From a virus, in IMG/VR virus record IMGVR_UViG_3300045988_149624: DNA of 64,000 nt; one strand, given 5' to 3'. The notes below the pieces were generated by a model. The model saw only the letters and a list, made by a program, of their open reading frames with translations. It did not search any database and had not been told where the DNA came from. Shown one piece after another: positions 36,394 through 63,994 of this stretch; the first letter of the stretch is position 1; each line of letters opens with the position of its first letter. Both the position numbers and the translations under genes were made by a program.

Positions 36394-36422
36394 ATTATAT
36401 CATATTTTAATATTGTTGTCAA
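36394..36422 (-). promoter_or_regulatory. Conserved early promoter P1
   Basis: Minus-strand TTGACA, 17 nt spacer, TATAAT. Spacer ACAATATTAAAATATGA. Confidence 0.75.
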
Positions 36423-36439
36423 GTAATTTTATAAACTTT

Positions 36440-36712
36440 TTATCTCCTTCTTTCATACTTACGCTGAACATTAACTCCATCTATGAGTGCCCATTGATAT
36501 ATTCTTGCTAAATATATTTCTTTATATTCATTTAGGTCAATATTATTTTTTTCTATATATTTATCTATTACTTCTTTTTGCTCTGAAATTTTCTTTTCAT
36601 TTTCTTTCATCTTTTTCTTCCTGCCTTGAATACAAAACATCAAACCGTCAGATAATAATTGACATAAATCATCAAGCATAGATGTTATTTCTCCGTAATG
36701 TTCCGTTTTCAT
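36440..36712 (-). CDS. Hypothetical protein
   Basis: AAGGAG RBS after promoter P2. Confidence 0.6.
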   Translation of the reverse strand: MKTEHYGEITSMLDDLCQLLSDGLMFCIQGRKKKMKENEKKISEQKEVIDKYIEKNNIDLNEYKEIYLARIYQWALIDGVNVQRKYERRR

Positions 36713-36736
36713 ATTATTACTCCTTTCTATATTTAT

Positions 36737-36765
36737 ATTATATCATATTTTATTAATGTTGTCAA
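36737..36765 (-). promoter_or_regulatory. Conserved early promoter P2
   Basis: TTGACA, 17 nt spacer, TATAAT on the minus strand. Confidence 0.75.
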
Positions 36766-36770
36766 CCTTA

Positions 36771-36875
36771 CTACTTAAAAATTTTAAGTAGGCTTATTAA
36801 AAGTTTTAAGTAACTCACTTAATTTTTTTAAAACTATAAATACTTATATAAATACTTATATATAAATACTTATAT
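36771..36875. repeat. Palindromes plus three tandem AAATACTTATAT units (iteron/operator candidates)
   Basis: 21-bp perfect palindrome CTACTTAAAAATTTTAAGTAG (36771-36791). TTAAGT-5 nt-ACTTAA (36806-36822). Tandem units at 36838, 36850 and 36864. Confidence 0.85.
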
Positions 36876-36913
36876 ACTCACACAAGAAAACTTGTATGAA
36901 ACTAAATTTCATT

Positions 36914-37354
36914 TTATTCTTCTTTATTAAAAGTAAACGTATAAATTTTCCCTTCTGTTTCTTTAACTATAGAATCCAAAACTTCTCTTATTTCTTTTTC
37001 TTCTTGGTCTTCCATTTCATCTTGAACTATTATAGGAATAAAAATTTTATAAATATTATTTGTATATTTACTAAGTTTACATTCAAATTTGCTTATTTTT
37101 ATTAATCCCAATTCTTCTAAATTTTTAATACATTTTGTAACTGTAGGGATGCTCATATTAATATTTTTAGAAATAGTATTAAGACTAGGAAAGGCATATC
37201 CCAGTTCTCTGTTGTAATTACTACATAGATAACAGTAAACCTTAAATTCGTTTCCGTTGGTTAATTTAAAAATATCATTACTTATTTGTGTAAAATTTCC
37301 ATCTAACCTATCGTACCTTCTTAAAGAATATTTAATGCAACCTGCCCTTTTCAT
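36914..37354 (-). CDS. Winged-helix/HTH DNA-binding protein (replication-initiator- or regulator-like)
   Basis: ATG after AAGGAG. FPSLNTISKNINMSIPTVTKCIKNLEELGLIKI is a typical HTH segment. Confidence 0.6.
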   Translation of the reverse strand: MKRAGCIKYSLRRYDRLDGNFTQISNDIFKLTNGNEFKVYCYLCSNYNRELGYAFPSLNTISKNINMSIPTVTKCIKNLEELGLIKISKFECKLSKYTNNIYKIFIPIIVQDEMEDQEEKEIREVLDSIVKETEGKIYTFTFNKEE

Positions 37355-37379
37355 ATCTATCACTCCTTTCTATACACTT

Positions 37380-37408
37380 ATTATATCATATTTTACTAAT
37401 GTTGTCAA
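37380..37408 (-). promoter_or_regulatory. Conserved early promoter P3
   Basis: TTGACA, 17 nt spacer, TATAAT on the minus strand. Confidence 0.75.
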
Positions 37409-37414
37409 GTATTT

Positions 37415-37651
37415 TTATAAAATTTCTTCAAATTCAAATTTATTAAGTGTATTGCTTATAACAGTAAAATATTTATAATCTTCTTCTCCAGTAGCAAGAT
37501 TTTTTACCTTTAGCATCTTTTGATAACCTGCATAGTTATCAAGGGTAGAAGATAAAAGAATTTCATCTCCTACTTTTAAGTCTTTAAAAACTTTTGCTTG
37601 TGTTCTTTTCTTAATTTTTGTAACTCTTAATTTTAATTTTAATTCAAGCAT
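37415..37651 (-). CDS. Hypothetical protein
   Basis: AAAGGAG RBS. Confidence 0.55.
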   Translation of the reverse strand: MLELKLKLRVTKIKKRTQAKVFKDLKVGDEILLSSTLDNYAGYQKMLKVKNLATGEEDYKYFTVISNTLNKFEFEEIL

Positions 37652-37654: not shown

Positions 37655-38146
37655 TTACTCCTTTATATATTTTAAAATATCCAAGTCATTAACCTTAATA
37701 CAGTTATCTTGTAACCATTTTAAAGGAATACTCTTTCTGTTATAGACTTCTTCAAAATTTAAAAGCAATTTAGCATTAAATAAAAAGATTTCGTTCGTTT
37801 GTCTCATTTCTACAATCATATAAACTCTATCTGTATAGTTTAGATATTCCTCTATTAATTCAAATTGATAAGGTTTTATATTGGATAGAGGGAAAGAGGT
37901 GCTATTATTACAACTTTTAGCTTCAATAAATACTACTTCTCCATTCTTTAAGCAACCACAATAATCAAGGAAATGAGACTTATCCTTAGGATAAGCCGTA
38001 ACTATTTTTCCTTTTGCCCCTCTAATAACTACCCAATCAGTAGGTACTTTAGATATAAAAGCTAATTTATTTTTTCTATATTCATTAAATTTATCTGATA
38101 ATCTTATTTCAAAATTTTTACCTATTTTATTACTATTTTTTGCCAT
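37655..38146 (-). CDS. recU: RecU-like Holliday-junction resolvase
   Basis: GKNFE..YRKNKLAFISKVPT...LDYCGCL..GEVVFIEAKSC..FPLSNIKPYQ matches the RecU pattern. Confidence 0.65.
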   Translation of the reverse strand: MAKNSNKIGKNFEIRLSDKFNEYRKNKLAFISKVPTDWVVIRGAKGKIVTAYPKDKSHFLDYCGCLKNGEVVFIEAKSCNNSTSFPLSNIKPYQFELIEEYLNYTDRVYMIVEMRQTNEIFLFNAKLLLNFEEVYNRKSIPLKWLQDNCIKVNDLDILKYIKE

Positions 38147-42849: not shown

Positions 42850-43116
42850 TTAGCCTTCATATTTCTCCACCAATTCATCGAAGTCCCTCTCTAAAATGTC
42901 ATAATTTCCTTTTAACTCGTCATAATCTTCTTTCAGTCTATCATAATTCCATTTTAAGTCATCATACCTTTCCTCCAATTCACCATGTACTTCTTCTAAA
43001 GATTGCATTTCATAACTTAAATCTATATAGTCTTTCTCCATCTCTTTGTATTCGTCTAATTCAATATATAGCTCATTAAGTTTTTCTAATAGCTGCTCTC
43101 TTGATAATCCGTTCAT
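42850..43116 (-). CDS. Highly acidic coiled-coil protein (88 aa)
   Basis: First gene after promoter P4. Repeats of the YD(D/E)LK type. Roughly a third of residues are D/E. Confidence 0.6.
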   Translation of the reverse strand: MNGLSREQLLEKLNELYIELDEYKEMEKDYIDLSYEMQSLEEVHGELEERYDDLKWNYDRLKEDYDELKGNYDILERDFDELVEKYEG

Positions 43117-43139
43117 ATCATCACCCTTTCTATATTTAT

Positions 43140-43168
43140 ATTATACCATATTTTAATAATGTTGTCAA
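43140..43168 (-). promoter_or_regulatory. Conserved early promoter P4
   Basis: TTGACA, 17 nt spacer, TATAAT. The -35 box contains the dam stop codon. Confidence 0.75.
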
Positions 43169-44028
43169 CTATTTTTTATATTTGTTATTAATACTTCTTT
43201 GATACTTTTAACGCCTTTTCTATTTTGACCTGTCCCTGTTGTGTTAGATAATTCTATTACTTGATAATCATTCTTATTGATTATATCATTTAGCTCTTTA
43301 TACATAACACCATCTCTTTCAAGATAATTAAAATATATAAAATCACATTTATTTTCATCTAATAGAGTTAGTAAATAATCATTATGTTTTTTGCTAAAGT
43401 CCATATTATACATTTCATCCATTAAAATATATGGCGGATCTAATATAAATAAATCTTTCTCATTAGGAGAAATATTTAATATGTCTTCTGTAAAAAATTC
43501 ATAATTATTTTTATTTAATTCTATATTCAAATCATTTAATCCATTTACTATTATTTTCTTCATAGTATCTGTAAAAAATTCAGTCTTTTTACCCAATCCT
43601 CTAAATCCTTGGTTAAATTCTCCTTTAGAATTAAATCTAACCATAGAATTACTACACATTTTTAATAATAAGGCTGTTTCATATATAAAAGCATCATCAA
43701 ACCTGTTATTTTTATATTTTTTATTCCAGTATTCTCTAAAGTTATAATAATCCTCTTTGCTACTAAATCTATTCCATTGATTCAATGTAATTTCAATTTG
43801 ATGTATATTAAAATTATCTATAACTCTAATACGTTCATATATATATGGTAATAACCTATTTTTATCATTTCCAATAAATCTATTAGCAGTACATTCTAAA
43901 TTTAAAAGTATATTCCCTGACCCCATAAAACAATCTACAACATCATTATACTTTTTATCTCTTACTAAATCATTTATTGTCCCTATATATTTATATTTAT
44001 TCCCTACCCAATTAAACGGTGATTTCAT
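43165..44028 (-). CDS. dam: DNA N6-adenine methyltransferase (Dam/D12 class)
   Basis: Start at the ATG after AGGAGGA. SPFNWVGNKYKY, FMGSGN (FxGxG) and ILDPPY (DPPY). Confidence 0.8.
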   Translation of the reverse strand: MKSPFNWVGNKYKYIGTINDLVRDKKYNDVVDCFMGSGNILLNLECTANRFIGNDKNRLLPYIYERIRVIDNFNIHQIEITLNQWNRFSSKEDYYNFREYWNKKYKNNRFDDAFIYETALLLKMCSNSMVRFNSKGEFNQGFRGLGKKTEFFTDTMKKIIVNGLNDLNIELNKNNYEFFTEDILNISPNEKDLFILDPPYILMDEMYNMDFSKKHNDYLLTLLDENKCDFIYFNYLERDGVMYKELNDIINKNDYQVIELSNTTGTGQNRKGVKSIKEVLITNIKNS

Positions 44029-44095
44029 AGTAAGTCCTCCTATTAACATTATATTTATTTTTATAATATAATTTATCACCTCCTTTCTTATTTAT

Positions 44096-44124
44096 ATTAT
44101 ATCATAAATTAATACTATTGTCAA
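44096..44124 (-). promoter_or_regulatory. Conserved early promoter P5
   Basis: TTGACA, 17 nt spacer, TATAAT on the minus strand. Confidence 0.7.
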
Positions 44125-44126
44125 CC

Positions 44127-46007
44127 CTAAATAACAAAACAATTATTTTTCTTATTTATGATTCCTATTTTTTTACTTATCCCACTAAATAAGAAATCCT
44201 CTTCTGCCGTAAATTTTAGTTGAGCCTTTGCATCCTCTGAGCCGTGATGAACGAATATTCTACTACAATTCATACCTTTCATATAAGAAATTAATTCTTT
44301 TCTTTGTATATGTCCCGTAAAGCTATTATATACATTAACTTCACATCTTATAGGAACGCTCTTATTCTCTATTGTTACAGATTTAGCACCTCTTTGAATT
44401 TTGCCACCTAGAGTCCTGTCAGAACAATATCCTATAAAACATATGCAATCTTGTTTTCTAGGAAGAATATGTTTAGCATATGCAACAGAATGCCCACCTG
44501 CCAACATACCTGAAGAAGATATTATAACACAAGGATTCTTCGTTTGTCTTGCCATCAATTCTGTTTTCTTATATTCATCAATAAATATGAAATTATCCCA
44601 AGACACTACTTCTTTCCAACGGTTTAATAATTCTCCTTGTAGCGTCTTTTCGTATACTTTATTAATCTCATTTGTTAACCTTGAATCTACTATAACTTTA
44701 ATATTTTTAAATTCTTCTTCATCTTTAAAAGTATGATACAATAAATCCATTATAGACTGACTTCTGTCAAAGCTAAAACAAGGTATAAGTATTCTATTTC
44801 CTTTATAAGTAACTTCTCTAATCTTATTAAGCAACCCTTCTACATCTTTTTCTACATCCTTTTTTGAAAACCCTCTATCTCCATAAGTACTTTCAAAGAT
44901 TGCGATATTTGCCTTAGAAACATTTCTTCTTTCATCACAATAAGGTTTATACTGTTGATTATAGCTAGAACCTAAATCAGATGAATAAAATATTTTTACT
45001 ATTCGACCACTTGGCTTTTTAATAAATATCTCTAAGGAAGTGCTACCAAAACAATGGTTATTAGAAACAAACCTAAAAGATAAATTAGAATTAATTTTAT
45101 GCATTACTTCCTTATCATATATTTTAATTTTATCTAAAATTCTAAATACATCAGATTCGTCATATAACATTTCGTATTTTTTACCTTTGTTATTCATACT
45201 TATTATGTTTCTTTTTTGTATAAAAGCCGAGTCAAGCAACATAGGACTTAATAGTTGAGCAGTTTCATAAGTAGTAACAACATTTCCGTCAAACCCTCTT
45301 GTAATCCCACTAGGTATATTGGCAACATGATCAGCATGACAATGACATACAAATATATTACTTGCTAGATTAAAAGGTATGTTATCTACCATTTTTTTAT
45401 TGGCATTAAAATCTTCTACCATTCTATTTGTTTGTATACTTCCACACTCTAACAGAATTAGGTCTCTTCCTCCGTTATCTAATGGATATTCTATGGCAAA
45501 ACATGAACCTGTAACATCTTCTGTTGAGCCACCTAAAGAAGTAATAATTATTTTATTTTTATATTTTTTGTTATTAGCAAAATGATGCTTGAATTTTTTC
45601 TTTTCAACTATCATTAAATTTTCTTTTCTATTGTCCAATATATTTCCGTTTACATATTCAATTTTATTATCTGTATCCATTAAAAGGCTAGGCAAATCAA
45701 ATGTATATCTATCTGTAGAACCAACTATATGTTTGCCTACCTTTTTCCAAACCACATTCTTTACTATATCTATATCTTCAATATCTATTAAGATTTTTTC
45801 TTCTATCTCTTCTTGATAAATATCGTATAGAACAATTTCTGCATAATCATTGTGGATTCTAATTTCATTAGGTTCATTTTCTGTTCTATCACTTGTTGTT
45901 ATACAGAACCCAAATTCATTATATTCATTTAAATGTTTGGCGCATAACATCTTTTTATTTTTATGTTTTAACTCTCTTCCACAAACTTTACATACTAATT
46001 TGTTCAT
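44127..46007 (-). CDS. Metallo-beta-lactamase/beta-CASP-type nuclease fused to an N-terminal Zn-ribbon and a degenerate HNH_3-like domain
   Basis: CKVCG..CAKH. IEYVNGNILDNRKENL (HNH_3 pattern with Tyr in place of the first His). MBL motif HCHADH. Confidence 0.65.
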   Translation of the reverse strand: MNKLVCKVCGRELKHKNKKMLCAKHLNEYNEFGFCITTSDRTENEPNEIRIHNDYAEIVLYDIYQEEIEEKILIDIEDIDIVKNVVWKKVGKHIVGSTDRYTFDLPSLLMDTDNKIEYVNGNILDNRKENLMIVEKKKFKHHFANNKKYKNKIIITSLGGSTEDVTGSCFAIEYPLDNGGRDLILLECGSIQTNRMVEDFNANKKMVDNIPFNLASNIFVCHCHADHVANIPSGITRGFDGNVVTTYETAQLLSPMLLDSAFIQKRNIISMNNKGKKYEMLYDESDVFRILDKIKIYDKEVMHKINSNLSFRFVSNNHCFGSTSLEIFIKKPSGRIVKIFYSSDLGSSYNQQYKPYCDERRNVSKANIAIFESTYGDRGFSKKDVEKDVEGLLNKIREVTYKGNRILIPCFSFDRSQSIMDLLYHTFKDEEEFKNIKVIVDSRLTNEINKVYEKTLQGELLNRWKEVVSWDNFIFIDEYKKTELMARQTKNPCVIISSSGMLAGGHSVAYAKHILPRKQDCICFIGYCSDRTLGGKIQRGAKSVTIENKSVPIRCEVNVYNSFTGHIQRKELISYMKGMNCSRIFVHHGSEDAKAQLKFTAEEDFLFSGISKKIGIINKKNNCFVI

Positions 46008-54517: not shown

Positions 54518-54545
54518 ATCATCACCTTTTCTTTATTATACTTAT

Positions 54546-54574: not shown

Positions 54575-54580
54575 GTACTT

Positions 54581-56200
54581 TTAGTAAAATAATCCTGTAT
54601 AAACGTTATCTACATATGCAACATCTTTAATTCTACCATAGTCTCCGTTGAATTCTTGCAAAATAATTATATTTGAATCACTGGCTTCCCTACACTTATC
54701 TAAGAAAGCCAATATATAATGTTTATTTTTATCTAGTGTAAGTTCATCATCAAAATCTCCTTCTAATCTTCTTCTAGTAGGAGCAGTTTTATCTACTATC
54801 TTAAAATATTTTTTCTTAAAGTTGCCATTCCTATCTTTTCTCCAAACATACGGCTTTAAAAACATTCTATCATCTTCTTCGTCTAATTCTTTTGGATTTA
54901 CTTTCCTAGTTAATAAAAGAAGTCCTGCAACATCTTTAACGTGTTTTGACCCTGCTAGTAAACTAGATGTTAAGAAACTTGCTTTGCCAGTCATAGAACC
55001 CATAAGTTGCATAGGTAATAATATTTTACAATTCATTTCTTTTCCAAATTTATCTAAGGCAACTGAATTAGCCATTAATTCTTTAACACTATCCTCTTGT
55101 GATTCGGCTTTAAACGTTTCTACAATTAATGTTGAGAAACCTTCTGCTAGAATTAACTTCTTAGCCTCTCTCATTATTTTATCAACAGAAAACTCACTAA
55201 CACTATAAAATGCAATAGTATCTTTATATCTTTCTTTAATAAATTTATTGGCTTTTAAAAAAACTTTCTTTTCTTCATCGTTAAAATTAAAATGTTTAAT
55301 CTTTGTTCTATTTAATGTGAAACAACCAAATACATATGCAGAAATATAAGATAATAACATTGTTCTAAAATATTTAATCTGTTGTTCATTACTTACTAGA
55401 ATTACTTTTTCTCCATTCTCTACAAGGGACATAGCGATATTTGTTATAAGCGTAGTTTTTCCGACTCCACTAAAAGCTCCAAATATAGCTACACCATTTC
55501 CGCTACTTAATCCATCAGTACTTTTACTAAGAAGTGGAAAATTCTTATGATATTTAAACTCTCCATTTTCTGTCTCCCAAGTTAAAGTAGTATCATAATA
55601 AGTTGTGTCATCATCTACTTCTCCTTCTTCAATTTGCTCAAGTTCTTCATCAGAATAAAATAAATATTCTCTTATCATATCTGTTGCAACACTTCTTACA
55701 TTTACACTTGATAACTGCATATCAAAGAAATCTAAAACTTGTTGACTGCTCATAGAAGTAAATTTATCGGCAGGTACAATTTTCTTATCTCCTACCAATA
55801 TCTCCTTATTTATATCAATAGCTAACTTCTCTGAAACTTCTTCTATTAGATTATATTTGATTACTTCATCCAAATGTGAATAGAAATTTTCTACATTGGC
55901 TAACTCCTTAATCTTTTTAAACTCTTTTGCTCCTCCATAGTCCTCAAAATCTTGAGTTAATGCTTCTGAAAGTTTAAGGAAATTAATAACAGTAAATTCA
56001 TTAACTTCCCTATATCTTGTAGATAATTCAGAAACTAATTTAAAATAAAATTTATTCTTAGGAGTAGAAAAATCATCTTCTATTAAGGGTGTTTCACTTA
56101 TTAAACTTAAATCTTGAAGAAGGCATGATATTAACATTTTTTCAGCAATCTCTTTTTGTTCATTCATTACTTCACATTCTACATCTAATGTTCTCGCCAT
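54581..56200 (-). CDS. dnaB: Replicative DNA helicase (DnaB-like)
   Basis: Walker A GAFSGVGKTTL. RecA-like core (ILVSNEQ, LIVETFK). Adjacent to primase. Confidence 0.75.
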   Translation of the reverse strand: MARTLDVECEVMNEQKEIAEKMLISCLLQDLSLISETPLIEDDFSTPKNKFYFKLVSELSTRYREVNEFTVINFLKLSEALTQDFEDYGGAKEFKKIKELANVENFYSHLDEVIKYNLIEEVSEKLAIDINKEILVGDKKIVPADKFTSMSSQQVLDFFDMQLSSVNVRSVATDMIREYLFYSDEELEQIEEGEVDDDTTYYDTTLTWETENGEFKYHKNFPLLSKSTDGLSSGNGVAIFGAFSGVGKTTLITNIAMSLVENGEKVILVSNEQQIKYFRTMLLSYISAYVFGCFTLNRTKIKHFNFNDEEKKVFLKANKFIKERYKDTIAFYSVSEFSVDKIMREAKKLILAEGFSTLIVETFKAESQEDSVKELMANSVALDKFGKEMNCKILLPMQLMGSMTGKASFLTSSLLAGSKHVKDVAGLLLLTRKVNPKELDEEDDRMFLKPYVWRKDRNGNFKKKYFKIVDKTAPTRRRLEGDFDDELTLDKNKHYILAFLDKCREASDSNIIILQEFNGDYGRIKDVAYVDNVYTGLFY

Positions 56201-56765: not shown

Positions 56766-57149
56766 CTACTCCATTTCTCTATATTTTAGCTCATCTAAAG
56801 TGTGTATCTTTCCGTTATTAAATCTACATACAGAACATCCCATTTCATCAGCAGCATTATAACATTGAACGTCCCAACATCGGATTCCATGTTTCTTTAT
56901 TTCGCTTAAAGGTAATTCTGATGCACCCCAATAATTCCCCCATAAATTTACTTCTATTAATCTCTGATTACATTCTATAATATCTAATTTTTCTTCTTTT
57001 ACTTTATGAAAAATAACGGGGCAAATATGACAATCTATATCATATGTGGAACATAAAATATCATCACAATTTACATAATTTTCTTGTTGTCTATATTTTT
57101 TAGGTAATATTGGAATGAACATTTCACCTATTCTAACTTTCTCACTCAC
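56766..57149 (-). CDS. Cys-rich protein, tandem paralog 1
   Basis: GTG start 6 nt after AAGGAGAG. Aligns with 57253..57633 (IPI(L/V)PKKY, DILC, IDC..CP, EMxC..C(R/K)FN). Confidence 0.6.
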   Translation of the reverse strand: MSEKVRIGEMFIPILPKKYRQQENYVNCDDILCSTYDIDCHICPVIFHKVKEEKLDIIECNQRLIEVNLWGNYWGASELPLSEIKKHGIRCWDVQCYNAADEMGCSVCRFNNGKIHTLDELKYREME

Positions 57150-57174
57150 ATTAATCTCTCCTTTCTATATATTA

Positions 57175-57203
57175 ATTATATCATATTTTAACAATGTTGT
57201 CAA
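57175..57203 (-). promoter_or_regulatory. Conserved early promoter P8
   Basis: TTGACA, 17 nt spacer, TATAAT on the minus strand. Confidence 0.75.
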
Positions 57204-57252
57204 GTATTTTTTTAATTTTTATTATTTCCATTTTCTAGGCATTTTAATCTCG

Positions 57253-57633
57253 TTAATCTATTTCTCTCCAAATTATTTTTTCTAAAAAATAAGTTCTATC
57301 ATCATTAAATTTACAACGTTCACAATCCATTTCTTTTTTCATGGAGCAACATTGTATATCACAACAATTTATTCCATTTTCTACTATATCTTTTAAAGTT
57401 TTATTTGTCATGCTCCAAAATCCCTCACACAATCTTATTTCTACCAATTTTCCATTAGTCTCAATAATACTCATATCGTCATCATGGATTTCCCCAAAAT
57501 CCATAGGACAGTCTCCACAATCTATGTGAAAACCTTCGCATAAAATATCCTCGCAGCATATAAATCCTTTTTTAAATTGATATTTCTTCGGTACTATAGG
57601 TATTAATTTTCCATTTATTTCAATCTTTCTCAT
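57253..57633 (-). CDS. Cys-rich protein, tandem paralog 2
   Basis: AAGGAGA RBS. 12 Cys in 126 aa. Confidence 0.6.
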   Translation of the reverse strand: MRKIEINGKLIPIVPKKYQFKKGFICCEDILCEGFHIDCGDCPMDFGEIHDDDMSIIETNGKLVEIRLCEGFWSMTNKTLKDIVENGINCCDIQCCSMKKEMDCERCKFNDDRTYFLEKIIWREID

Positions 57634-57659
57634 ATTATTTTCTCCTTTCTTATGTGTTA

Positions 57660-57688
57660 ATTATATCATATTTTAACATTATTGTCAA
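57660..57688 (-). promoter_or_regulatory. Conserved early promoter P9
   Basis: TTGACA, 17 nt spacer, TATAAT on the minus strand. Confidence 0.75.
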
Positions 57689-57828
57689 CTATTATTTAAA
57701 AATATTGTATCAATTATATCAATAAGCGATATAATCATTAATGTTGTAGCAATATCAATATAGTTCCATTTTATATATAGAATAGCTATAATCATTAATA
57801 TTAAATCTTTCCTAATTTCTTTAAACAT
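57685..57828 (-). CDS. Small hydrophobic protein, 47 aa (not in the ORF track)
   Basis: AAGGAGA sits 5 nt before the ATG. MFKEIRKDLILMIIAILYIKWNYIDIATTLMIISLIDIIDTIFLNNS. The stop TGA lies inside the -35 box of P9. Confidence 0.45.
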   Translation of the reverse strand: MFKEIRKDLILMIIAILYIKWNYIDIATTLMIISLIDIIDTIFLNNS

Positions 57829-57842: not shown

Positions 57843-57869
57843 AAAAAGGGTAGATATTTCTACCTACCC
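57843..57869 (-). terminator. Rho-independent terminator after erf
   Basis: Minus-strand GGGTAG-10 nt-CTACCC followed by TTTTT. Confidence 0.6.
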
Positions 57870-57877: not shown

Positions 57878-58462
57878 TTATAAACTTCTTCTTGATGATT
57901 TTGGTTTAGTAACAGGTTTTGTTTCCTCTTCCTCTATTATTAAATCACTCGCATCGGTATCATCTTCTGAGAAACTTAATCCTAATAATGAAGTTATTTG
58001 ATATCTTTTTAAATATGTCATTAGAGAACCATAACCCTGTGCTTCTAATTTAGGGGGTATTAAAGATATTGAATTACTCTCTATAAATTGCCCTGTTTCA
58101 ACATGAATTAATCTAGTTTTAATACATATAGAGTTTTCTTTTGTTCCACTTATAGGAAGTTGTATTAAAATTAATCCTTGGTCATTTAAAATAGGTCTAG
58201 TTACATTTAATATTTGAGATAAACTAGCGTAACTAGATTCGTGAAATGGATTCTCTGCATCCTTTTCTACTGTTGTAAAATGCTTATGAAATCCTGCCAA
58301 AGCCTTGTATAGCTCTGTAGTATTATCGCTAGAATAAAACTGAACATCTGAATTACCTATTTGTTTATTAACATTAAATTTACATTTACACTCCATATTT
58401 GCCTCCTTTAAAGAGTGAGGAATTTCCTCACCTAATATTTTTTCATTAATTACATTTTCCAT
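57878..58462 (-). CDS. erf: ERF-family single-strand annealing protein
   Basis: NPFHESSYASLSQILNVTRPILNDQGL..IQLP...GSLMTYLKRYQITSLLGL matches the ERF pattern. Confidence 0.7.
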   Translation of the reverse strand: MENVINEKILGEEIPHSLKEANMECKCKFNVNKQIGNSDVQFYSSDNTTELYKALAGFHKHFTTVEKDAENPFHESSYASLSQILNVTRPILNDQGLILIQLPISGTKENSICIKTRLIHVETGQFIESNSISLIPPKLEAQGYGSLMTYLKRYQITSLLGLSFSEDDTDASDLIIEEEETKPVTKPKSSRRSL

Positions 58463-58483: not shown

Positions 58484-59488
58484 TTAAAATGGCACTTCGT
58501 CTTCGGCTACTTCTACTTCTTCACCTTCTACTTCTTCACCTTTTTCTTTTTTAATATCATCTACTTTTTCTTGAAGTCTTTCAATTCTTTCGTCTATTGC
58601 TTGATGCATTAATTCTATATAATGAGAAGTGAATGGGAAGTCCTCTTGACTAGGAACAGTATAGCAAAATTCTTCTTCTTCTCCTTCTTCAAGGTCGTCA
58701 TATACTGGTTTTATATATTCATCATTGTCGTCTAAAGTCATAATTGGAGCAGAACAATTAGTTAATTCAAAATAAGTTTCAATCTGAACCCTATTTTTAA
58801 CAGATTTACCTATACCTCTGCTTTTCTTAGCTTTAGCTACAGATTTAATAAAATCAAATTCTATATAAAGTATGTCTCCTACTTTAAGTTCTTCTTTAAT
58901 ATATTCGGCATATTCTTCATTATGAGTTCTTATTTTCATTATAAATCCATTTACTTTATCCTCTTTTTCTTCCTCGTTATAATAAGCATAATTATTAACT
59001 AATACACTTAGTTCTAAAGCATTACCATCAATATCAGTCACATCTTCATAACCTTCAAGCATACAATAAATCATACCTTTAGAACCTTTAGTAATAGGGA
59101 ATTTGCTATCTTCTTGAGTGGTACAGAATACTCCTCCTACTCTAGTTCCTCTGTCAACAAACTCTCCTTCTTTGGTAACATATTTATTTTCGTCAAATCT
59201 TACTAAACAGTTAACTATTTCGCCTTCTCCGTCATCTTCAACTGTCCTACACTCTGAATAGAGTTTTTTCATTTTAGCATATGTTTTATTTGTATTTCCA
59301 TTACCAGAGTATTTTCTAATAAAGAAATCAACATCAGTTGACTTTCCTTCTTCTGTTTCAACCTCCATAACAAATCTAATAGCTTCATCTTTTTTACCTT
59401 TATTAGTTATTGCTCCGTTTTTAATTGCTAAAACTTCACCATTTACATATCCTTCGGAATATCTCACTCTTTTCTCTTTATCTGCCAT
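58484..59488 (-). CDS. Atypical SSB-like protein (acidic C-terminal tail ending EDEVPF)
   Basis: C-terminal ...EEVEVAEDEVPF resembles the SSB D-D-D-I-P-F tip. Operon partner of Erf. Confidence 0.5.
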   Translation of the reverse strand: MADKEKRVRYSEGYVNGEVLAIKNGAITNKGKKDEAIRFVMEVETEEGKSTDVDFFIRKYSGNGNTNKTYAKMKKLYSECRTVEDDGEGEIVNCLVRFDENKYVTKEGEFVDRGTRVGGVFCTTQEDSKFPITKGSKGMIYCMLEGYEDVTDIDGNALELSVLVNNYAYYNEEEKEDKVNGFIMKIRTHNEEYAEYIKEELKVGDILYIEFDFIKSVAKAKKSRGIGKSVKNRVQIETYFELTNCSAPIMTLDDNDEYIKPVYDDLEEGEEEEFCYTVPSQEDFPFTSHYIELMHQAIDERIERLQEKVDDIKKEKGEEVEGEEVEVAEDEVPF

Positions 59489-59519
59489 ATTATCATTCTC
59501 CTTTCATATTTACATCTTA

Positions 59520-59548
59520 ATTATATCATATTTTAATAATGTTGTCAA
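59520..59548 (-). promoter_or_regulatory. Conserved early promoter P10
   Basis: TTGACA, 17 nt spacer, TATAAT on the minus strand. Confidence 0.75.
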
Positions 59549-59551
59549 GTA

Positions 59552-59962
59552 CTATTCACAAGATTTTTCAATTTCTTTTTCTATTATCTTTTTAGCCATT
59601 CTTAATTTACAAAGTCTATACCCTTTATTAACATCAAAAGTGTCACTAGGGTGGACTTTTGAGGACACCTTACCATAAGTAGGAGACTCCATCACCACCA
59701 TTTCTCTGTTATATCTCCACTTAACAGGGACTTTTTTATTAGCTATATTAATTACGTCTGTTTTCCAATCTGTCCAAGCTATCTTAAACAGTTTATCTAC
59801 CATATCTCTATCTACCAACATAAGTTCTACAGAATTCTCTTTTTTTAAAGTTAATTCATACCCACAACAATGATTAAACGTTTCTACCATTTTGAAATCA
59901 TGTAATACATATGTTTCTTTAGTAATAACATTCACTAATTTGTCTCCACACTTAAATTTCAT
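59552..59962 (-). CDS. Hypothetical protein
   Basis: AAGGAGA RBS. Confidence 0.55.
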   Translation of the reverse strand: MKFKCGDKLVNVITKETYVLHDFKMVETFNHCCGYELTLKKENSVELMLVDRDMVDKLFKIAWTDWKTDVINIANKKVPVKWRYNREMVVMESPTYGKVSSKVHPSDTFDVNKGYRLCKLRMAKKIIEKEIEKSCE

Positions 59963-60002: not shown

Positions 60003-60134
60003 TTATTCTTCATAAGAAAATTCCCAACATATATCAAAAAAATCTGTTTCTTCATTCCATTTTAAACAATAATATTCATATCCTTTATAATTTCTTCTAC
60101 AATAATCACAATTTGCACAATAGTGTTCTCTCAT
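60003..60134 (-). CDS. Cys-rich micro-protein, 43 aa (not in the ORF track)
   Basis: MREHYCANCDYCRRNYKGYEYYCLKWNEE.. First ORF after promoter P11. Weak RBS. Confidence 0.4.
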   Translation of the reverse strand: MREHYCANCDYCRRNYKGYEYYCLKWNEETDFFDICWEFSYEE

Positions 60135-60167
60135 TTTATCAGCTCTCTTCTCGTTTTCTATACTTAT

Positions 60168-60196
60168 ATTATACCGTATTTTAATAATGTTGTCAA
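60168..60196 (-). promoter_or_regulatory. Conserved early promoter P11
   Basis: TTGACA, 17 nt spacer, TATAAT on the minus strand. Confidence 0.75.
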
Positions 60197-60198
60197 CC

Positions 60199-61347
60199 CT
60201 ATTTAAATAAGTTTTTAAAAATATTTTCTAACACTGGAACGGCAATACTATTACCTATTTGTTTATATAATTGAGTATCAGAAGTTGGTACATTTTTAGC
60301 TTTATAAAAATCATCATCACTAAATCCCATCAATCTCCAACATTCAAGTGGAGTTAATCTCCTAATTTTAAAGTTAGTAACAACTTCCCCATCTATTACT
60401 AACGGTTGTCTCCAACCTCCTTGCATAGTGTCTAAAGTAGGAGATATAAATTCTTTATCATAAATGCTTCCTGCTTGATGTCTTCTGCCTTCTTCATCAA
60501 ATACTCCACCTAATCTAACTGGAAGAACTTCTATAATCTGTTTAGGTTGCTTATAGTCTCTCGCAGAAAGAGTTGAGATACATTTATTGGGATTATATAC
60601 CCAAGCAGAGGTACAATTACGATATTTAACATTACCATTTTCATCACATGGATGTGGAGCAGTTGTCCCTAAAACCTCTAAACATTCATTATTTAATCTA
60701 TCTTGAGGGAATTTAAAAAATCTGTCTTGCATTTCTTGAGATAAATAATATTTGTCTTCAACTGAATCTTCTAATATATCTTTAAGTTTTAATTTTAACG
60801 GAAATCCTTGAGGAAATTCAAAGGTATGCTTATCATCTAATATGCTAATAACATAAATACGTTCTCTGTTTTGAGGCAAACCAAAATCTTTCGCATTTAA
60901 TATTTTATAATAAGAAATATATCCAACTTCTTTTAAATCTTCTATATACTGATTAAAATTATGTATATGTTTTTTACTCATTACGTTTTTAACATTTTCC
61001 CAAATAACATATTTGGGCTTAACTTTTTTAATTATATCTACACTGTACCACATAAGACTACTTCTAGTGCCACTTCCTTTATCTCCACCTTTGCCCTTCC
61101 CCGAAACAGAGTAGTCCTGACATGGGCTTCCTGATACGATAATATCAATATTTTTAGGTAATAACTTTACATCTATTGAACTTACATCGCCCAAATTTAA
61201 ACTTTCATCTACTCCATGTATCGCACAGTAACTTTTAATCGCAAATTTATCTATCTCACTAAATCCAACTAAATCATAATCCACATTAGCATTTTTAAGT
61301 GCTTTTTCAAATGCACCTATACCACTAAAAAGACTAAGTAATTTCAT
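60199..61347 (-). CDS. dcm: DNA cytosine-5 methyltransferase
   Basis: Start at the ATG after AAGGAG. LFSGIGAFE (motif I), GSPCQDYS (IV), WENV (VI), QIGNSIAVPV (X). Confidence 0.85.
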   Translation of the reverse strand: MKLLSLFSGIGAFEKALKNANVDYDLVGFSEIDKFAIKSYCAIHGVDESLNLGDVSSIDVKLLPKNIDIIVSGSPCQDYSVSGKGKGGDKGSGTRSSLMWYSVDIIKKVKPKYVIWENVKNVMSKKHIHNFNQYIEDLKEVGYISYYKILNAKDFGLPQNRERIYVISILDDKHTFEFPQGFPLKLKLKDILEDSVEDKYYLSQEMQDRFFKFPQDRLNNECLEVLGTTAPHPCDENGNVKYRNCTSAWVYNPNKCISTLSARDYKQPKQIIEVLPVRLGGVFDEEGRRHQAGSIYDKEFISPTLDTMQGGWRQPLVIDGEVVTNFKIRRLTPLECWRLMGFSDDDFYKAKNVPTSDTQLYKQIGNSIAVPVLENIFKNLFK

Positions 61348-61348: not shown

Positions 61349-61377
61349 GCATCACTCCTTTTTAATAATGTTGTCAA
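61349..61377 (-). promoter_or_regulatory. Truncated copy of the early promoter (-35 box and half the spacer only)
   Basis: TTGACAACATTATTAAAAA is followed directly by GGAGTGATGCTATG (the dcm RBS and start). No -10 box. Confidence 0.4.
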
Positions 61378-61407
61378 GGGGAGTTATCCCCTCAACAAAA
61401 CCTATCC

Positions 61408-61560
61408 TTAATATAATTCTAACCTTGTAATATTCATGATATTTTCACTACTCTGATACAAGTTAGTGTTAAATATTATATCATCTACGGAATAAGCAAC
61501 AACTATTTGTGTTGAATAATCACTATAAACTATCAACCATTTAAATCTACTAGAACTCAT
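61408..61560 (-). CDS. Possible small ORF, 50 aa (not in the ORF track)
   Basis: GGAAGGAAGG upstream of the ATG. Coding status uncertain. Confidence 0.3.
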   Translation of the reverse strand: MSSSRFKWLIVYSDYSTQIVVAYSVDDIIFNTNLYQSSENIMNITRLELY

Positions 61561-61579
61561 ATTTTATACCTTCCTTCCT

Positions 61580-62089
61580 TTATCTTTTATAATAAATTAC
61601 ATAGCAAGTTCTTTTCTTCACACCCATTCGGTTAACTCTTTTCTTATATTGTCTACTAGACTCACCTTTAATTCTAGGAACATATACATCTAATTTATAA
61701 GGAGTGTTTAATCCTCGTCCTCCCCTGTCAGCCACTTTTTTCATACCGTAACCTTCGATATATATGTTTCTTCCTAACGCCCAATAATTATTTGCTATTG
61801 TCTTACTATTTAGTTTCCCTAAAGAGCCATAACCTGCATAACCACCATTTTCACTAGCTAAAGAAGTATAGTGGTATATTTTGCAAGTTATCTTTTTAAC
61901 TTTTCTAACTTTTCTTCCTGTTTTTTTAGTCCAATATCGTGTGCTTGTTTTTGAATAAGCATCTACATAACTACTGTCCGTGGGGCAATAAAAAGTACTT
62001 CCAAGCACTACTCCTACTGCTAATCCTACTGCTAATATTTTCTTTTTAATTCTTCTCATTCTATCACCTCTATTTAAAATTCTTCTCAT
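61580..62089 (-). CDS. Secreted 3D-domain (MltA/RlpA-like) protein
   Basis: Signal-like KKKILAVGLAVGVVLGS. ASENGGYAGYG..IANNYWALGRNIYIEGYGMKKVADRGG..LDVYV. Two equivalent starts (62089 and 62059) arise from a 30-bp duplication. Confidence 0.65.
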   Translation of the reverse strand: MRRILNRGDRMRRIKKKILAVGLAVGVVLGSTFYCPTDSSYVDAYSKTSTRYWTKKTGRKVRKVKKITCKIYHYTSLASENGGYAGYGSLGKLNSKTIANNYWALGRNIYIEGYGMKKVADRGGRGLNTPYKLDVYVPRIKGESSRQYKKRVNRMGVKKRTCYVIYYKR

Positions 62090-62101
62090 CTAATCACCTC
62101 T
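62048..62101 (-). repeat. 30-bp tandem duplication of the RBS and first codons, abutting the TnpB element end
   Basis: + strand AATTCTTCTCATTCTATCACCTCT (62048-62071) and AATTCTTCTCATCTAATCACCTCT (62078-62101). Confidence 0.85.
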
Positions 62102-62280
62102 TTGAACCTCTCACAGCTTTAGCCATGAGATTCTTGGGAATTCCTTTCTACTGAAAAGATATTTACCAAGCTATCCCGATAATTCCTACCGTTCTTTTTT
62201 TATATTCGTTATTCGTCTATTCTATTTCTAATATTCTTAATCCTTCTTTTAATATATTCTTACTTGCATTTATATCTCTA
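62101..62280 (-). ncRNA. Candidate TnpB omega (right-end) RNA scaffold; extent approximate
   Basis: Structured non-coding tail after the tnpB stop: CUUGG...CCAAG pairing, GGAAUUCC, hairpin CUCAUGGCU-AA-AGCUGUGAG. It ends ...GGTTCAA just before the duplicated flank. Confidence 0.4.
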
Positions 62281-63320
62281 TCGTGATGAGCGTGACAACA
62301 AGGACAGTCCCATTCTCTTACTGAAAGATTTTTCGTGTCCTTATTCACATAACCACACACATTACAAGTTTGAGAACTTGCATAGAATTTATCTACTTTA
62401 ATAACTTGTCTACCATACCAATTTGCTTTATACTCAAGTTGTCTTACAAATTCTGACCATGATACATCTGTGATAGACTGTGCAAGTTTATGATTCTTAA
62501 TCATGTTCTTTACTTGTAAATCCTCTAAGCAGACAACATCATTGTTTCTAATTATTTCAGTAGATAATTTCTGTAAAAAGTCTTTTCTCTGATTTGCAAT
62601 ATGTTCATGAAGTCTTGCGGCCTTTATTCTTGTTTTATTACGATTTGAACTACCTTTTGATTTTCGAGATAATTCTCTTTGTAATTTTACAAGTTTATCC
62701 AATGACTTCTTTAAGTATTTTGGATTTTGAATTATTTCGCCATCAGATGTAATACAAAATTCTTTAATTCCTAAGTCAATTCCAACTGTATTATTAGTCT
62801 TTTCAAATGGTTCAATATCCACCTCAGTACAGCAAAGCGACACAAAATATTTTCCACTTGGTTCTTGTGATACTGTTGCATTAAGAATCCTACCTTGTGG
62901 TATTAACTTGTTTTTTGTCTTTACCATTCCAAGTTTAGGCAACTTGATGTATTTATCACAATATTGGATGTTTCCATTCACACATTTTGACTTGTAAGAA
63001 AATTTATATGTTTTCTTTGACTTAAATTTAGGATAACCAGAATGTTCTTTGAAGAATTTCTGATAAGCCATATCTAAATCTCTAAGCGAAGATTGAAGAG
63101 CAGTAGAATCGACTTCTTTTAACCATTCCAGTTCTGATTTTAATTTTTTCATATCGTTTGCACATTGAACATATGAAAATGTTTCTTTATTTTGTTCATA
63201 CATTTTAATTCGCTTTGCAAGATATTTATTATACACAAATCGGCAACACCCAAAAGTCTTAGAAATTATTTCTTGTTGTTTTTTATTTGGATAAATGCGA
63301 TATTTATAAGCCTTTTCCAC
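62217..63320 (-). CDS. tnpB: IS200/IS605-family TnpB (OrfB) RNA-guided nuclease
   Basis: GTG start after [19 protein letters not shown]-terminus. RuvC residues in [18 protein letters not shown] and HDRDINAS. Zn finger CNVCG...CPCC. Confidence 0.85.
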
Positions 63321-63374
63321 TACTTGTCACCTCTATAAAAATATTTTCCCACCCACCAATCCCATAAATCTTAT

Positions 63375-63932
63375 CTATCTTTTTACATTTCTTAGCTCAT
63401 TAATTATATCATCAAAGAAATCATCTATTCCTGTTTCTGAGACTCTAATTACACCAAAAGGAGTTACAAAACGTTGCATATCTTTTTTATTAGATTTTTT
63501 AGATTTACCAACGAGTCTAACACTATTTTCTGTATGATTACAAATCAATTCTTTCCCATCAGTCATTAATATAACTCCACTTTTAGGTTCGAATAATACA
63601 AATTTTGCCTTTTTCCATGTATCATTGCCTACAGAAAATTCAACATCTGTTCCTAATTCTACTTTACTCCAGTCGGTCTTGCTTTCTTCTTTTTCTCTGT
63701 CCCATACTAATTTCCCAACTTCGTTAAATACTTTCATTATATCTTTTTTGTTATCAAGTTTATGATTCATCTTTTTATCATATTCATTTTTAAAGGCTTT
63801 AAAGTATATATCTTTACCTTCTTTTAAAGGCTCTCTTATTGCCATTATATCTCCATTAAATATAAAGCATTTTTCATTTGCCTCTTCTTCTCTTAATACC
63901 ACTCTAAAATTTCTTCCATAAGTTTCTATCAT
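63375..63932 (-). CDS. Hypothetical protein, paralog of 52016..52612
   Basis: AGGTGA RBS after promoter P12. Shared KL(I/V)W.RE...DWSK(I/V) segment. Confidence 0.6.
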   Translation of the reverse strand: MIETYGRNFRVVLREEEANEKCFIFNGDIMAIREPLKEGKDIYFKAFKNEYDKKMNHKLDNKKDIMKVFNEVGKLVWDREKEESKTDWSKVELGTDVEFSVGNDTWKKAKFVLFEPKSGVILMTDGKELICNHTENSVRLVGKSKKSNKKDMQRFVTPFGVIRVSETGIDDFFDDIINELRNVKR

Positions 63933-63965
63933 ACTATCACCTATCCCTTTCTTTATTATACTTAT

Positions 63966-63994
63966 ATTATATCATAAACTCATATTGTTGTCAA
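63966..63994 (-). promoter_or_regulatory. Conserved early promoter P12
   Basis: TTGACA, 17 nt spacer, TATAAT on the minus strand. Downstream leader CTTTATTATACTTATATTATATCA is identical to that of P7. Confidence 0.75.

Follow-up and report, generated by a model that had tools for sequence, protein, structure and literature searches.

Why does one phage genome carry a dozen near-identical copies of a promoter, leader and ribosome-binding site along one arm, and what keeps the copies alike? We addressed this question in a stretch of 64,000 nucleotides (the window), which covers part of the genome (~130–145 kb, 28% GC) of an uncultured human-gut phage. A sequence-only reading of the window had suggested either a dedicated regulator that binds across the spacer or spread of the cassette by recombination. 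Relatives of the phage are big plasmid-like Clostridioides difficile siphophages, which are distant (DnaE is 45% identical) and include the plasmid-like phages phiCD5763 and LIBA6276 (PMC5786514). A ParM/Alp-like partition gene is present in the window, and sister genomes encode a tyrosine recombinase, ANT/Rha antirepressors and a PriCT-wHTH Rep. Judged from its sequence, the genome looks temperate and plasmid-borne, and the phage is probably a phage-plasmid; this raises the question of how at least 30 consensus promoters become silenced.

Twelve cassettes and the units behind them

All twelve minus-strand cassettes were found where the sequence-only reading had placed them, each reading TTGACA-17 nt-TATAAT, for which the chance expectation is 0. 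A 29-mer search allowing up to 3 mismatches recovered 10 copies versus 0 in 100 shuffles, and a hexamer-only pattern search added two copies (44124 and 63994). A weight matrix, which the same reading had called for, was built from the 12 copies and scanned over the window; the copies scored 43–65 bits and the next site scored 12 bits (28715, plus strand), and the set is thus sharply bounded. Every one of the 12 copies combines a perfect TTGACA with a perfect TATAAT at exact 17-nt spacing, and no other 12/12 promoter occurs on the minus strand; TG precedes the –10 in 11 of the copies. Perfect hexamer pairs in the window numbered 14 versus 0.28 expected in shuffles, and none was found within the structural module (1–28714).

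The cassettes, all on the minus strand, precede genes for ERF, DnaB, primase, RecJ, DnaE, NrdDG, Gmk, RecU and two methyltransferases. Cassette 1 (36372..36430) has its –35 at 36422–36417, its –10 at 36399–36394 and a predicted start at ~36387, followed by an SD and a small ORF (36206..36373). Cassette 2 (36715..36773, –35 at 36765), with a hairpin immediately upstream, would drive ORF 36440..36712, and cassette 3 (37358..37416, –35 at 37408) would drive the DnaD-like ORF 36914..37363. The –35 of cassette 4 (43118..43176, –35 at 43168) overlaps the methyltransferase TGA, and the genes predicted to follow from it are 42850..43116, NrdD/NrdG, Gmk and RecU. The SD of cassette 5 (44074..44132, –35 at 44124), which has the spacer subtype ATAGTATTAATTTATGA, is orphaned; the methyltransferase starts at 44028, preceded by a second SD. 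Cassette 6 (49720..49778, –35 at 49770) probably serves 49117..49710, DnaE (46036..49101) and the beta-CASP nuclease, and cassette 7 (54524..54582, –35 at 54574) small ORFs, a primase-like gene and a RecJ-like gene. A Cys-rich ORF (56766..57149) and the DnaB-like helicase lie behind cassette 8 (57153..57211, –35 at 57203), and the paralogous Cys-rich ORF 57253..57633 lies behind cassette 9 (57638..57696, –35 at 57688), whose –35 overlaps the TGA of ORF 57685..57828. Cassette 10 (59498..59556, –35 at 59548) would drive 58484..59488 and the ERF recombinase (57878..58462). Cassette 11 (60146..60204, –35 at 60196) is the sole copy without TG before the –10, and its first ORF (60003..60134) is swapped for another in four sister genomes. 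Cassette 12 (63944..64000, –35 at 63994) has the spacer subtype ACAATATGAGTTTATGA, precedes 63375..63932 as its putative target and has its upstream flank cut by the window end. TGA stops had been described within TTGACA, and these are borne out by the ends of ORFs 43165..44079, 57685..57828 and 29963..30253.

Three plus-strand promoters had been reported as related copies facing the other way. They are real, with 12/12 matches at 28715 and 30250 and 11/12 at 33960, but their resemblance to the cassettes is loose. The first (28715..28743) is a perfect sigma-A promoter without TRTG before the actin-like ParM/Alp partition operon (29037..30253); the second (30250..30278), also perfect, has the downstream ATAAATATAG in common, followed by a leader hairpin; and the third (33960..33988) lies before a short non-coding stretch ending in a terminator.

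We infer promoter activity, start sites and read-through from sequence. The twelve copies would divide the leftward arm, with its replication, nucleotide-metabolism and accessory genes, into a nested set of transcription units, for which we propose an early/middle expression class. Terminators are almost missing around the cassettes, the only one nearby being a terminator-like hairpin (57848..57869, minus strand) after the ERF gene and upstream of cassette 9; this near-absence suggests that host polymerase can enter at each copy without a phage factor.

Promoter elements within the cassette

Numbered from the first T of the –35, the stretch conserved among the 12 copies spans roughly –8 to +45. 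Upstream of the –35 there is an A-rich tract whose last base is C; the TTGACA hexamer comes next, then an AT-rich spacer of 17 nt that closes with TRTG, and then TATAAT. After the –10 come a discriminator of 5 nt (ATAAR), the start triplet TAT and a leader that is AG-rich and contains GGAG; the start codon lies 52–62 nt from the –35. The TAT triplet predicts that transcription begins at its A, 35 nt downstream of the T that opens the –35. Mean pairwise identity was 96% over the –35 plus 3 nt, 78% in the mid-spacer, 93% over TRTGnTATAAT and 66% in the 10 nt after the –10, compared with 34–43% in the flanks. Conservation had been claimed to run well beyond what sigma-A needs; it does reach the spacer and leader, but nearly every conserved position matches a described promoter element. 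Likewise, the palindrome noted at the –10 is correct as a string but is expected from alternating A/T. Folding of 11 cassettes gave z-scores near 0 for 9.

In Firmicutes, TRTG is the –16 consensus (PMC6570832, citing Voskuil and Chambliss; PMC12641261), and promoters are described as having an UP region with a 3'-terminal C, a spacer made of four parts and an AT/AG-rich discriminator of 5 bp, with a YRY start triplet lying 7 bp beyond the –10 and an initial transcript that is AG-rich (PMC12641261). All named elements of such full-architecture sigma-A/sigma-70 promoters are present here in consensus sequence at the expected positions (PMC12641261, PMC6570832). Furthermore, across 47 non-orthologous sites of the phage family, C–1 was found in 35, T18, T20 and G21 in 43–45, and T34, A35 and T36 in 41–45. 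On this basis, we consider it fairly probable that each cassette is a complete, near-optimal housekeeping sigma-A promoter with a short leader carrying a strong ribosome-binding site. Unlike these cassettes, ordinary promoters within a single genome do not have a common spacer, and no described promoter element contains the ACAnTnTKA block found after the cassette –35.

Cassettes as recombination junctions

The suggestion that the cassette was spread by recombination was upheld in sister genomes by hybrid cassettes, in which the crossover lies within the cassette and exactly the intervening gene is gone, and by alternative downstream genes at 11 of 42 cassette sites. Base-by-base hybrid cassettes were found for three gene modules (minus strand), with each state present in 2–8 assemblies. 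The N6-adenine methyltransferase module (43169..44124) is absent in contigs 138989 and 118408, the DnaD/replication-initiator-like 'HTH' module (36766..37345) in 8 sister assemblies, and the module of the Cys-rich paralogue 57253..57633 (57216..57660) in contigs 128445 and 3300039366_000094, and all of these carry a hybrid cassette. One further indel used 16 bp of common SD sequence. In addition, 130 cassette instances fell into 42 upstream and 44 downstream flank clusters with 55 junction combinations, and 11 upstream flanks were joined to more than one downstream gene. Within the window alone, by our own count, homology breakpoints coincided with 8 of 12 cassette junctions versus ~12 of 33 other gene junctions, an excess of ~1.8-fold that is not significant on its own. 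Taken together, these comparisons show the cassette copies to be points where genes get excised, inserted or swapped.

The copies have ~55–60 bp in common, so the cassettes may serve as portable homology. Recombination between copies would delete, insert or swap the flanked genes, and each gene so delivered would bring its own promoter and ribosome-binding site. The phage ERF-family single-strand annealing protein (57878..58462, minus strand; Pfam ERF 6e-25), the RecU-type Holliday junction resolvase (37655..38146, minus strand; Pfam RecU 3e-25) and the RecJ-like nuclease are probably the catalysts, and we infer the recombination roles of ERF and RecU.

This arrangement is already known in kind; the phage group is new for it. 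The closest analogues are the PeSLs (promoter-early stem-loops), 'mobile regulatory cassettes' of the T4-like phages phi1/RB49, PST and nt-1 (Arbiol 2010, PMC2839356; Comeau 2014, PMC4122927). As with these cassettes, PeSLs provide many consensus housekeeping-sigma promoters per genome, with an AT-rich upstream part and a 3' Shine-Dalgarno and start codon, and the stop codon of the upstream gene lies within or beside the motif. In both, the motif bounds indels or replacements between close relatives, an ORF flanked in one phage corresponds to a single chimeric motif in the other, and plastic loci of the methyltransferase, nrd and polymerase type are associated. However, PeSLs have a stem-loop/terminator component that the cassettes lack, and by description their spacers are far less alike. 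Unlike the T4-like PeSL phages, the phage studied here has a presumably Gram-positive low-GC host and a siphophage-like, probably plasmid-borne genome, and its cassettes occupy the core replication arm besides accessory-gene neighbourhoods. The early promoter sets of virulent phages such as T5 and SPO1 show homology outside the hexamers. They resemble the cassettes in that they too consist of multiple very strong promoters for the host polymerase and have further blocks of conservation upstream, within the spacer and beyond the start, but the phage here is probably temperate or plasmid-borne and its copies are demonstrably recombination junctions. The C. difficile siphophages phiCD5763 and LIBA6276 (PMC5786514) have the same gene order, ERF-helicase-primase-RecJ-DnaE-Nrd-Gmk; in the 50-kb stretch of LIBA6276 with the homologous replication arm (55000–104999), a repeated consensus promoter cassette was not found.

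Constraint on the spacer and the regulator question

Polymorphism among sister-genome orthologues was scored in 67 groups comprising 214 sequences. The hexamers were essentially invariant (0.2% of positions polymorphic in the –35, 1.2% in the –10), followed by the start region (4.7%), positions 6–8 (5%), the moderately constrained mid-spacer (7.5%), the TRTG region (13%) and the flanks (24%); the mid-spacer is thus ~3 times less polymorphic than the flanks and also less than the TRTG region. A block beside the –35 (A6 C7 A8. T10. T12 K13 A14) is near-invariant over the 47 sites (A6 47, C7 38 with T in the others, A8 44, T10 45, T12 43, A14 47). Its positions were also the least polymorphic of the spacer among orthologues, with 29 events versus 60 at variable positions, and 6 versus 21 in a smaller orthologue set. 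The block is without a firm RNA polymerase explanation, and polymerase preference may not explain it because in E. coli, with consensus hexamers and a 17-bp spacer, spacer sequence has little influence (PMC12641261). Furthermore, dense arrays of perfect TTGACAA-17-TRTGnTATAAT promoters with variable spacers occur in other large phage contigs of the same collection, which have no detectable protein similarity to this phage family over the compared stretches, so the polymerase does not need this particular spacer.

These findings bear on whether the cassettes double as operators for a single master regulator encoded by the phage, which we regard as possible but rather unlikely. A plasmid-prophage repressor or early shut-off factor would bind the –35-adjacent block and spacer (TTGACA-ACAnTnTKA...) and switch at least 30 promoters per genome together. 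The block, not clearly accounted for by the polymerase, least polymorphic within the spacer and absent in the other large phages of the collection, is consistent with this, and the lifestyle evidence (the ParM/Alp-like gene; recombinase, antirepressors and Rep in sister genomes; plasmid-like relatives) calls for global silencing. P1 C1, which controls many scattered asymmetric operators, and the stoperators of cluster A mycobacteriophages are systems in which one master repressor has scattered operators. They share with the cassettes a short conserved motif at tens of genomic sites overlapping promoters, and P1 is a plasmid prophage, as is probable for this phage. However, unlike in these systems, the conserved sequence is a complete promoter, operator-only sites were not found (stand-alone spacer motifs numbered 4 versus 1.8 expected, no excess), and a scan of 40 window ORFs against Pfam or PHROGs yielded no candidate repressor. 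The HTH protein previously put forward (36914..37354) is a poor candidate, since it is encoded by a DnaD/replication-initiator-like accessory gene that most of the sister genomes lack, and 8 sister assemblies without it retain the cassettes. In addition, inspection of the 47 sites found no dyad symmetry or consistent covariation in the spacer, which occurs in several stable subtypes, and the same block is present at the partition promoter and at a Rep-like gene, both of which would be expected to stay active in a plasmid prophage.

Conservation after the –10 could instead reflect a second –10-like hexamer (TATAAT/TATAGA, 11 bp after the first), acting either in a tandem promoter with a –35-like TTGATA/TTAAAA within the spacer or as a promoter-proximal sigma-dependent pause; we find this reading as a whole improbable. 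Lambdoid late promoters are an established case of sigma-dependent pausing at –10-like elements near +1; positions 34–39 read TATAAT over the 47 sites (T43 A45 T41 A41 A35 T26) with little polymorphism (4.7%), and, where the spacer is of the subtype CTTTGATAA, a generic scan detected TTGATAATGTGATATAATATAAGTATAAT as a shifted promoter. However, by our own reading the second –35 matches just 3–4 of 6 positions in the window's main spacer type, the hexamer is not TATAAT in 9 of 12 window copies (TATAGA in seven, ATAAGA and GTAAAT in one each), and it is simpler to read a YRY start triplet there, at the expected distance of 7 bp (PMC12641261). We consider it very improbable that a phage factor, either a translational repressor or an endoribonuclease comparable to T4 RegA/RegB, targets the common short 5' leader (AUAGAAAGGAG...) and thereby silences all early messages at once. 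A leader of ~10–25 nt with GGAG is common to all units and a beta-CASP/RMMBL nuclease is encoded in the same cassette-bearing arm, but polymorphism of the leader from +40 onward equals that of the flanks (24%), both the sequence and the spacing of the SD region vary, and conservation peaks upstream of the predicted start, in a part that is thus not in the RNA.

A dedicated regulator is not needed for explaining the conservation. Strong selection on polymerase-contact elements, common descent and homogenisation, taken jointly, may keep the copies alike. No effect of genomic distance on cassette similarity was seen, and although the two neighbouring Cys-rich paralogues have only 36% protein identity, 2 of the 17 spacer positions differ between their cassettes.

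Cassette set and promoter anatomy

The window was scanned with the 29-mer TTGACAACATTATTAAAATATGATATAAT, allowing up to 3 mismatches, and 10 matches were found, all on the minus strand, compared to none in 100 shuffles. Two additional cassettes (44124 and 63994; each of these repeated promoter, leader and Shine-Dalgarno (SD) units is named by its -35 end) were recovered with a pattern in which the hexamers and the bases just past the -10, but no others, were fixed. The sequence-only reading had counted 12 minus-strand cassettes, and this number was borne out: all 12 copies carry perfect TTGACA/TATAAT hexamers with an exact 17-nt spacer, and they are the sole 12/12 promoters on the minus strand of the window. 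The weight-matrix check that it had proposed, run here on the window, gave 43-65 bits for the 12 copies and 12 bits for the next best site; given this gap in 64 kb, there are no intermediate sites. Perfect hexamer pairs occur 14 times in the window compared to 0.28 expected, and none of them lies in the structural module (1-28714). In addition, the three TGA stops reported within TTGACA agree with ORF ends. A cassette-like string (TTCAGAACATTAAAAAAATATGATATAAGG), conserved across sister genomes (related metagenome contigs), was also observed within the coding sequence of a primase-like gene (53706-53734, minus strand), where it may be a decayed cassette or a chance match.

A consensus was built from 47 non-orthologous sites in the pan-genome of the phage family, with position 0 as the first T of the -35. 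An A-rich tract (-8 to -2) is followed by C at -1 (35/47), TTGACA, A6 (47/47), C7 (38/47; T in the remainder) and A8 (44/47). Within the spacer, T10, T12, K13 and A14 are almost fixed and positions 9, 11, 15-17, 19 and 22 are variable. A TRTG element (T18-R-T20-G21) precedes TATAAT, with T18, T20 and G21 present in 43-45 of the 47 family sites and TG before the -10 in 11 of the 12 window copies. Downstream lie ATAAR, T34 A35 T36 A37 and an AG-rich leader containing GGAG, and the start codon is 52-62 nt from the -35.

In Firmicutes, the -16 consensus is TRTG (PMC6570832, PMC12641261). Firmicute promoters are also described as ending their UP region in a C and as combining a four-part spacer with a 5-bp AT/AG-rich discriminator, an AG-rich initial transcript and a YRY 'start' triplet whose centre lies 7 bp past the -10 (PMC12641261). 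The cassette has such a triplet, TAT, at the expected start position, and the predicted transcription start is therefore A35. Judged by its elements, the cassette would be a full-strength sigma-A promoter. The claim that its conservation exceeds the needs of sigma-A was largely not upheld, since most of the conserved non-hexamer positions match described sigma-A elements. The palindrome described at the -10 proved to be a result of alternating A/T, and no stem-loop was found within or overlapping the cassette in 9 of the 11 cassettes folded (z-scores near 0). One terminator-like hairpin was found in 30 kb, and neither an Rfam nor a tRNA scan gave a match in the window.

Genome context and distribution of the cassettes

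The window has a GC content of 26-32%. The plus strand carries the structural genes, which extend to ~28 kb. The genes of a leftward arm, running from 64 kb to 34 kb, specify ERF, a DnaB-like helicase, primase, a RecJ-like nuclease, DnaE, a beta-CASP nuclease, NrdD/NrdG, guanylate kinase, RecU, dUTPase and two DNA methyltransferases. The DnaE protein shares 45% identity with its counterpart in the C. difficile phage LIBA6276, in which the genes follow the same order and whose group is described as big plasmid-like siphophages (PMC5786514). Near relatives (84-99% nucleotide identity) are metagenome contigs only, of 73-146 kb and several of them marked human gut; megablast of 54000-60500 against GenBank phages gave no near match. 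Downstream of a perfect sigma-A promoter lie an actin-like gene of the ParM/Alp7A type (29037..29975, plus strand; ALP_N 6e-10) and then a 96-aa ORF, and this operon (28715-30253, plus strand) is likely a plasmid-partition operon, pointing to a phage-plasmid lifestyle. Sister genomes furthermore encode a Xer-like tyrosine recombinase, ANT/Rha antirepressors and a PriCT-wHTH Rep, which together with the ParM/Alp gene suggest that a temperate phage-plasmid lifestyle is likely.

In the parts of the sister genomes that were fetched, each genome contains at least 15-32 distinct perfect copies, and the family pan-genome has at least 47 cassette sites with several spacer subtypes (e.g. CTTTGATAATGTGA and AATATGAGTTTATGA). 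No cassette array was found in the 50-kb stretch of LIBA6276 with the homologous arm (55000-104999); an array ancestral to the wider phage group was rejected for LIBA6276 on this ground. A host promoter or reference prophage as the source was also rejected, as the 29-mer gave just 2 single matches in 185,579 species genomes. Further large phage contigs from this collection, namely L186 (IMGVR_UViG_3300045988_166770), L169 and L140/L144/L172, bear perfect TTGACAA-17-TRTGnTATAAT promoters in dense arrays (e.g. 8 promoters in 12.5 kb), with variable spacers. Some of these share a downstream ATAAGTACA-TAA motif, and no protein similarity to the cassette family was found in the stretches compared. 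Since spacers vary in the arrays of these other phages, the polymerase does not appear to need this particular spacer; its uniformity is, on this comparison, a lineage-specific trait. A control scan of viral sequences with an 18-nt spacer gave singletons only, and the generic 17-nt-spacer pattern was too unspecific, with unrelated singletons among the matches listed. Three small viral contigs (L019, L035 and L036) match the cassette promoter at 27 of 29 positions (TTGACAACATTACTAAAATATGGTATAAT), probably by chance. A host RNA-gene promoter was discarded for these matches, with no Rfam or tRNA match and no RNA gene downstream, and L019 is a tailed-phage fragment rather than a microvirus because it encodes a terminase and a portal protein.

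Recombination and constraint at the cassettes

Aligning the window with sister contigs revealed many homology breaks inside cassettes or within 15 nt of them. Three two-cassette modules of the window, carrying an N6-adenine methyltransferase gene (43169-44124), a DnaD-like ORF (36766-37345) and a Cys-rich paralogue (57216-57660), are each replaced in sister contigs by a single hybrid cassette in which the crossover is visible. Each module state was found in 2-8 assemblies; assembly collapse is an unlikely source of the hybrids, because the exact shared runs of the flanking cassettes are < 25 nt and the states recur across assemblies. Family-wide, 130 cassette instances comprise 42 upstream and 44 downstream flank clusters in 55 combinations, with 11 of the 42 upstream flanks joined to two or more downstream genes, and nine of the downstream genes to two or more upstream flanks. 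Depending on the genome, 36422-37408 holds 0, 1, 2 or alternative modules. Within the window itself the excess of breakpoints is modest (8 of 12 cassette junctions compared to ~12 of 33 other gene junctions, by our own count). The spread of the cassette by recombination, which had been offered as one of two explanations, is thus supported by the hybrid cassettes at three modules and by the 11 of 42 sites with alternative downstream genes, and the events may be insertions or deletions, in either direction.

A 47-aa ORF (57685..57828, minus strand) and the promoter part of cassette 57688 are missing in contigs 127706, 118408 and 138989. The junction of this indel (compare 5700-5880 of viral contig L002) falls within 16 bp of shared SD sequence, suggesting that the ribosome-binding part alone can also be used as an exchange point. 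At cassette 44124, an orphan SD is retained and the gene behind it has an SD of its own, which fits movement of the cassette as a unit. Three enzymes encoded by the phage, ERF, RecU and a RecJ-like nuclease, may catalyse the exchanges.

To quantify constraint, we determined the percentage of polymorphic positions among orthologous cassettes (67 groups, 214 distinct sequences). The values were 24% in both flanks, 11% at -8 to -1, 0.2% in the -35 hexamer, 5% at positions 6-8, 7.5% in the mid-spacer (9-17), 13% at 18-22, 1.2% in the -10 hexamer, 15% at 29-33 and 4.7% at 34-39; codon third positions gave 6.7%. Judged from these values, the hexamers are under very strong selection, and the spacer is subject to either moderate constraint or homogenisation. 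A neutral spacer, considered when the window was compared with 38 orthologues, was dropped after codon-position rates and larger sets showed moderate constraint. Changes among orthologues fell at paralogue-variable positions in 60 events compared to 29 at other positions (21 and 6 in a smaller set). Among paralogous copies in the window, the mid-spacer is 78% identical compared to 34-43% in the flanks, and two adjacent Cys-rich paralogues with proteins 36% identical have spacers differing at 2 of 17 positions. The copies do not become less similar over genomic distance (r = -0.07), and local tandem duplication was therefore rejected as the only source of their similarity. The Cys-rich paralogues (56766..57149 and 57253..57633, minus strand; 126-127 aa) have one cassette each, and no protein family was found for them. 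Sister genomes likewise contain repeated small paralogues (a KKDKRI motif family in contig L018) and two amidoligase-like paralogues, each preceded by a cassette.

Among described systems, the closest is the promoter-early stem-loop (PeSL), a mobile regulatory cassette of T4-like phages (PMC2839356, PMC4122927). Both have a consensus promoter in repeated copies, AT-rich in its upstream part and ending 3' in an SD and start codon, with stop codons adjoining. In both, the motif also forms the boundary of indels or replacements that distinguish close relatives, one chimeric motif being left in the sister phage. However, the defining stem-loop is absent from the gut-phage cassettes, and they are therefore not filed as PeSLs; by analogy, they would be a stem-loop-less variant of the PeSL principle in another phage lineage and host phylum. 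The cassette finding is real, well explained and unsurprising to a phage specialist. It suggests that promoter-cassette gene shuffling, known in T4-like phages of Gram-negative hosts, also takes place in large gut phages, here in an uncultured family with low-GC hosts and without the stem-loop part. Furthermore, the cassette provides an annotation handle for transcription units, accessory modules (e.g. methyltransferases) and likely exchange points, and a ready unit of predicted strong promoter and ribosome-binding site for clostridial-type hosts.

Several other loci of the arm were noted. A TnpB/IS605-OrfB-type gene (62217..63320, minus strand; Pfam OrfB_IS605, Cas12f1-like TNB and HTH_OrfB_IS605) lies in a segment (62074-63326) absent from all sister contigs covering the site, and the segment therefore resembles a recent insertion unique to this genome. 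With five sister contigs, both flanks of 40135-42525 (minus strand) align, but the NrdG gene and most of the NrdD gene in between gave no nucleotide alignment; this looks like an allele replacement whose boundaries are not cassettes. A 626-aa beta-CASP/RMMBL metallo-nuclease (44127..46007, minus strand) matches the anti-Pycsar Apyc1 family weakly and below threshold (19 bits, cut-off 50).

A possible regulator and other regulatory elements

The sequence-only reading had alternatively proposed a dedicated regulator binding across the spacer. One phage regulator acting on the cassettes is compatible with their being sigma-A promoter units exchanged by recombination, and we regard it as unlikely. 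The block A6 C7 A8. T10. T12 K13 A14 is conserved, little polymorphic and not firmly explained by described elements, and the likely plasmid-prophage lifestyle implies at least 30 consensus promoters that need silencing. However, homogenisation or an effect of the '-22 region', which is reported to influence promoter strength (PMC6570832), could also account for the conservation of A6-A14. Dyad symmetry is absent from the cassette, and the same block is borne by the partition promoter and a Rep-like gene. Operator-only sites are not in excess (4 stand-alone matches compared to 1.8 expected); unlike in a P1 C1/stoperator-type regulon, there are no motif copies away from promoters beyond chance. 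No HTH repressor was found among 40 ORFs, many without a family, scanned in the 64-kb window of a ~130-145 kb genome. The gene named as the regulator candidate (36914..37354) turned out to be a replication-initiator-type accessory gene that is missing in most sister genomes.

A specific form of this idea, which we likewise regard as unlikely, is that TTGACA-ACAnTnTKA serves as an asymmetric operator in a phage-plasmid of gut Firmicutes, and that one master repressor acting there silences at least 30 consensus sigma-A promoters together in the plasmid-prophage state. If so, one cassette would combine promoter, operator, ribosome-binding site and recombination site, and a P1-C1-like regulon would be joined with PeSL-like gene shuffling. 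The analysis as a whole makes concrete and testable the question of how a probably temperate, plasmid-borne phage silences at least 30 consensus promoters.

Three plus-strand promoters had been described as related to the cassettes; they are present, but their relation to the cassette is loose only. At 33960-34090, ~95 ORF-free nt lie behind an 11/12 promoter and end in a strong hairpin with a T-run (AAGAGTTGAAATATCTCCAACTCTTATTTTTTTTT) where the two gene arms converge; this locus, which gave no Rfam match, is a candidate small RNA and bidirectional terminator. At 30250-30390, a leader hairpin (ACCACCGTAA...TTACGGTGGT) with a T-rich tail lies between the promoter and an ORF from ~30387, and it is possibly an attenuator.
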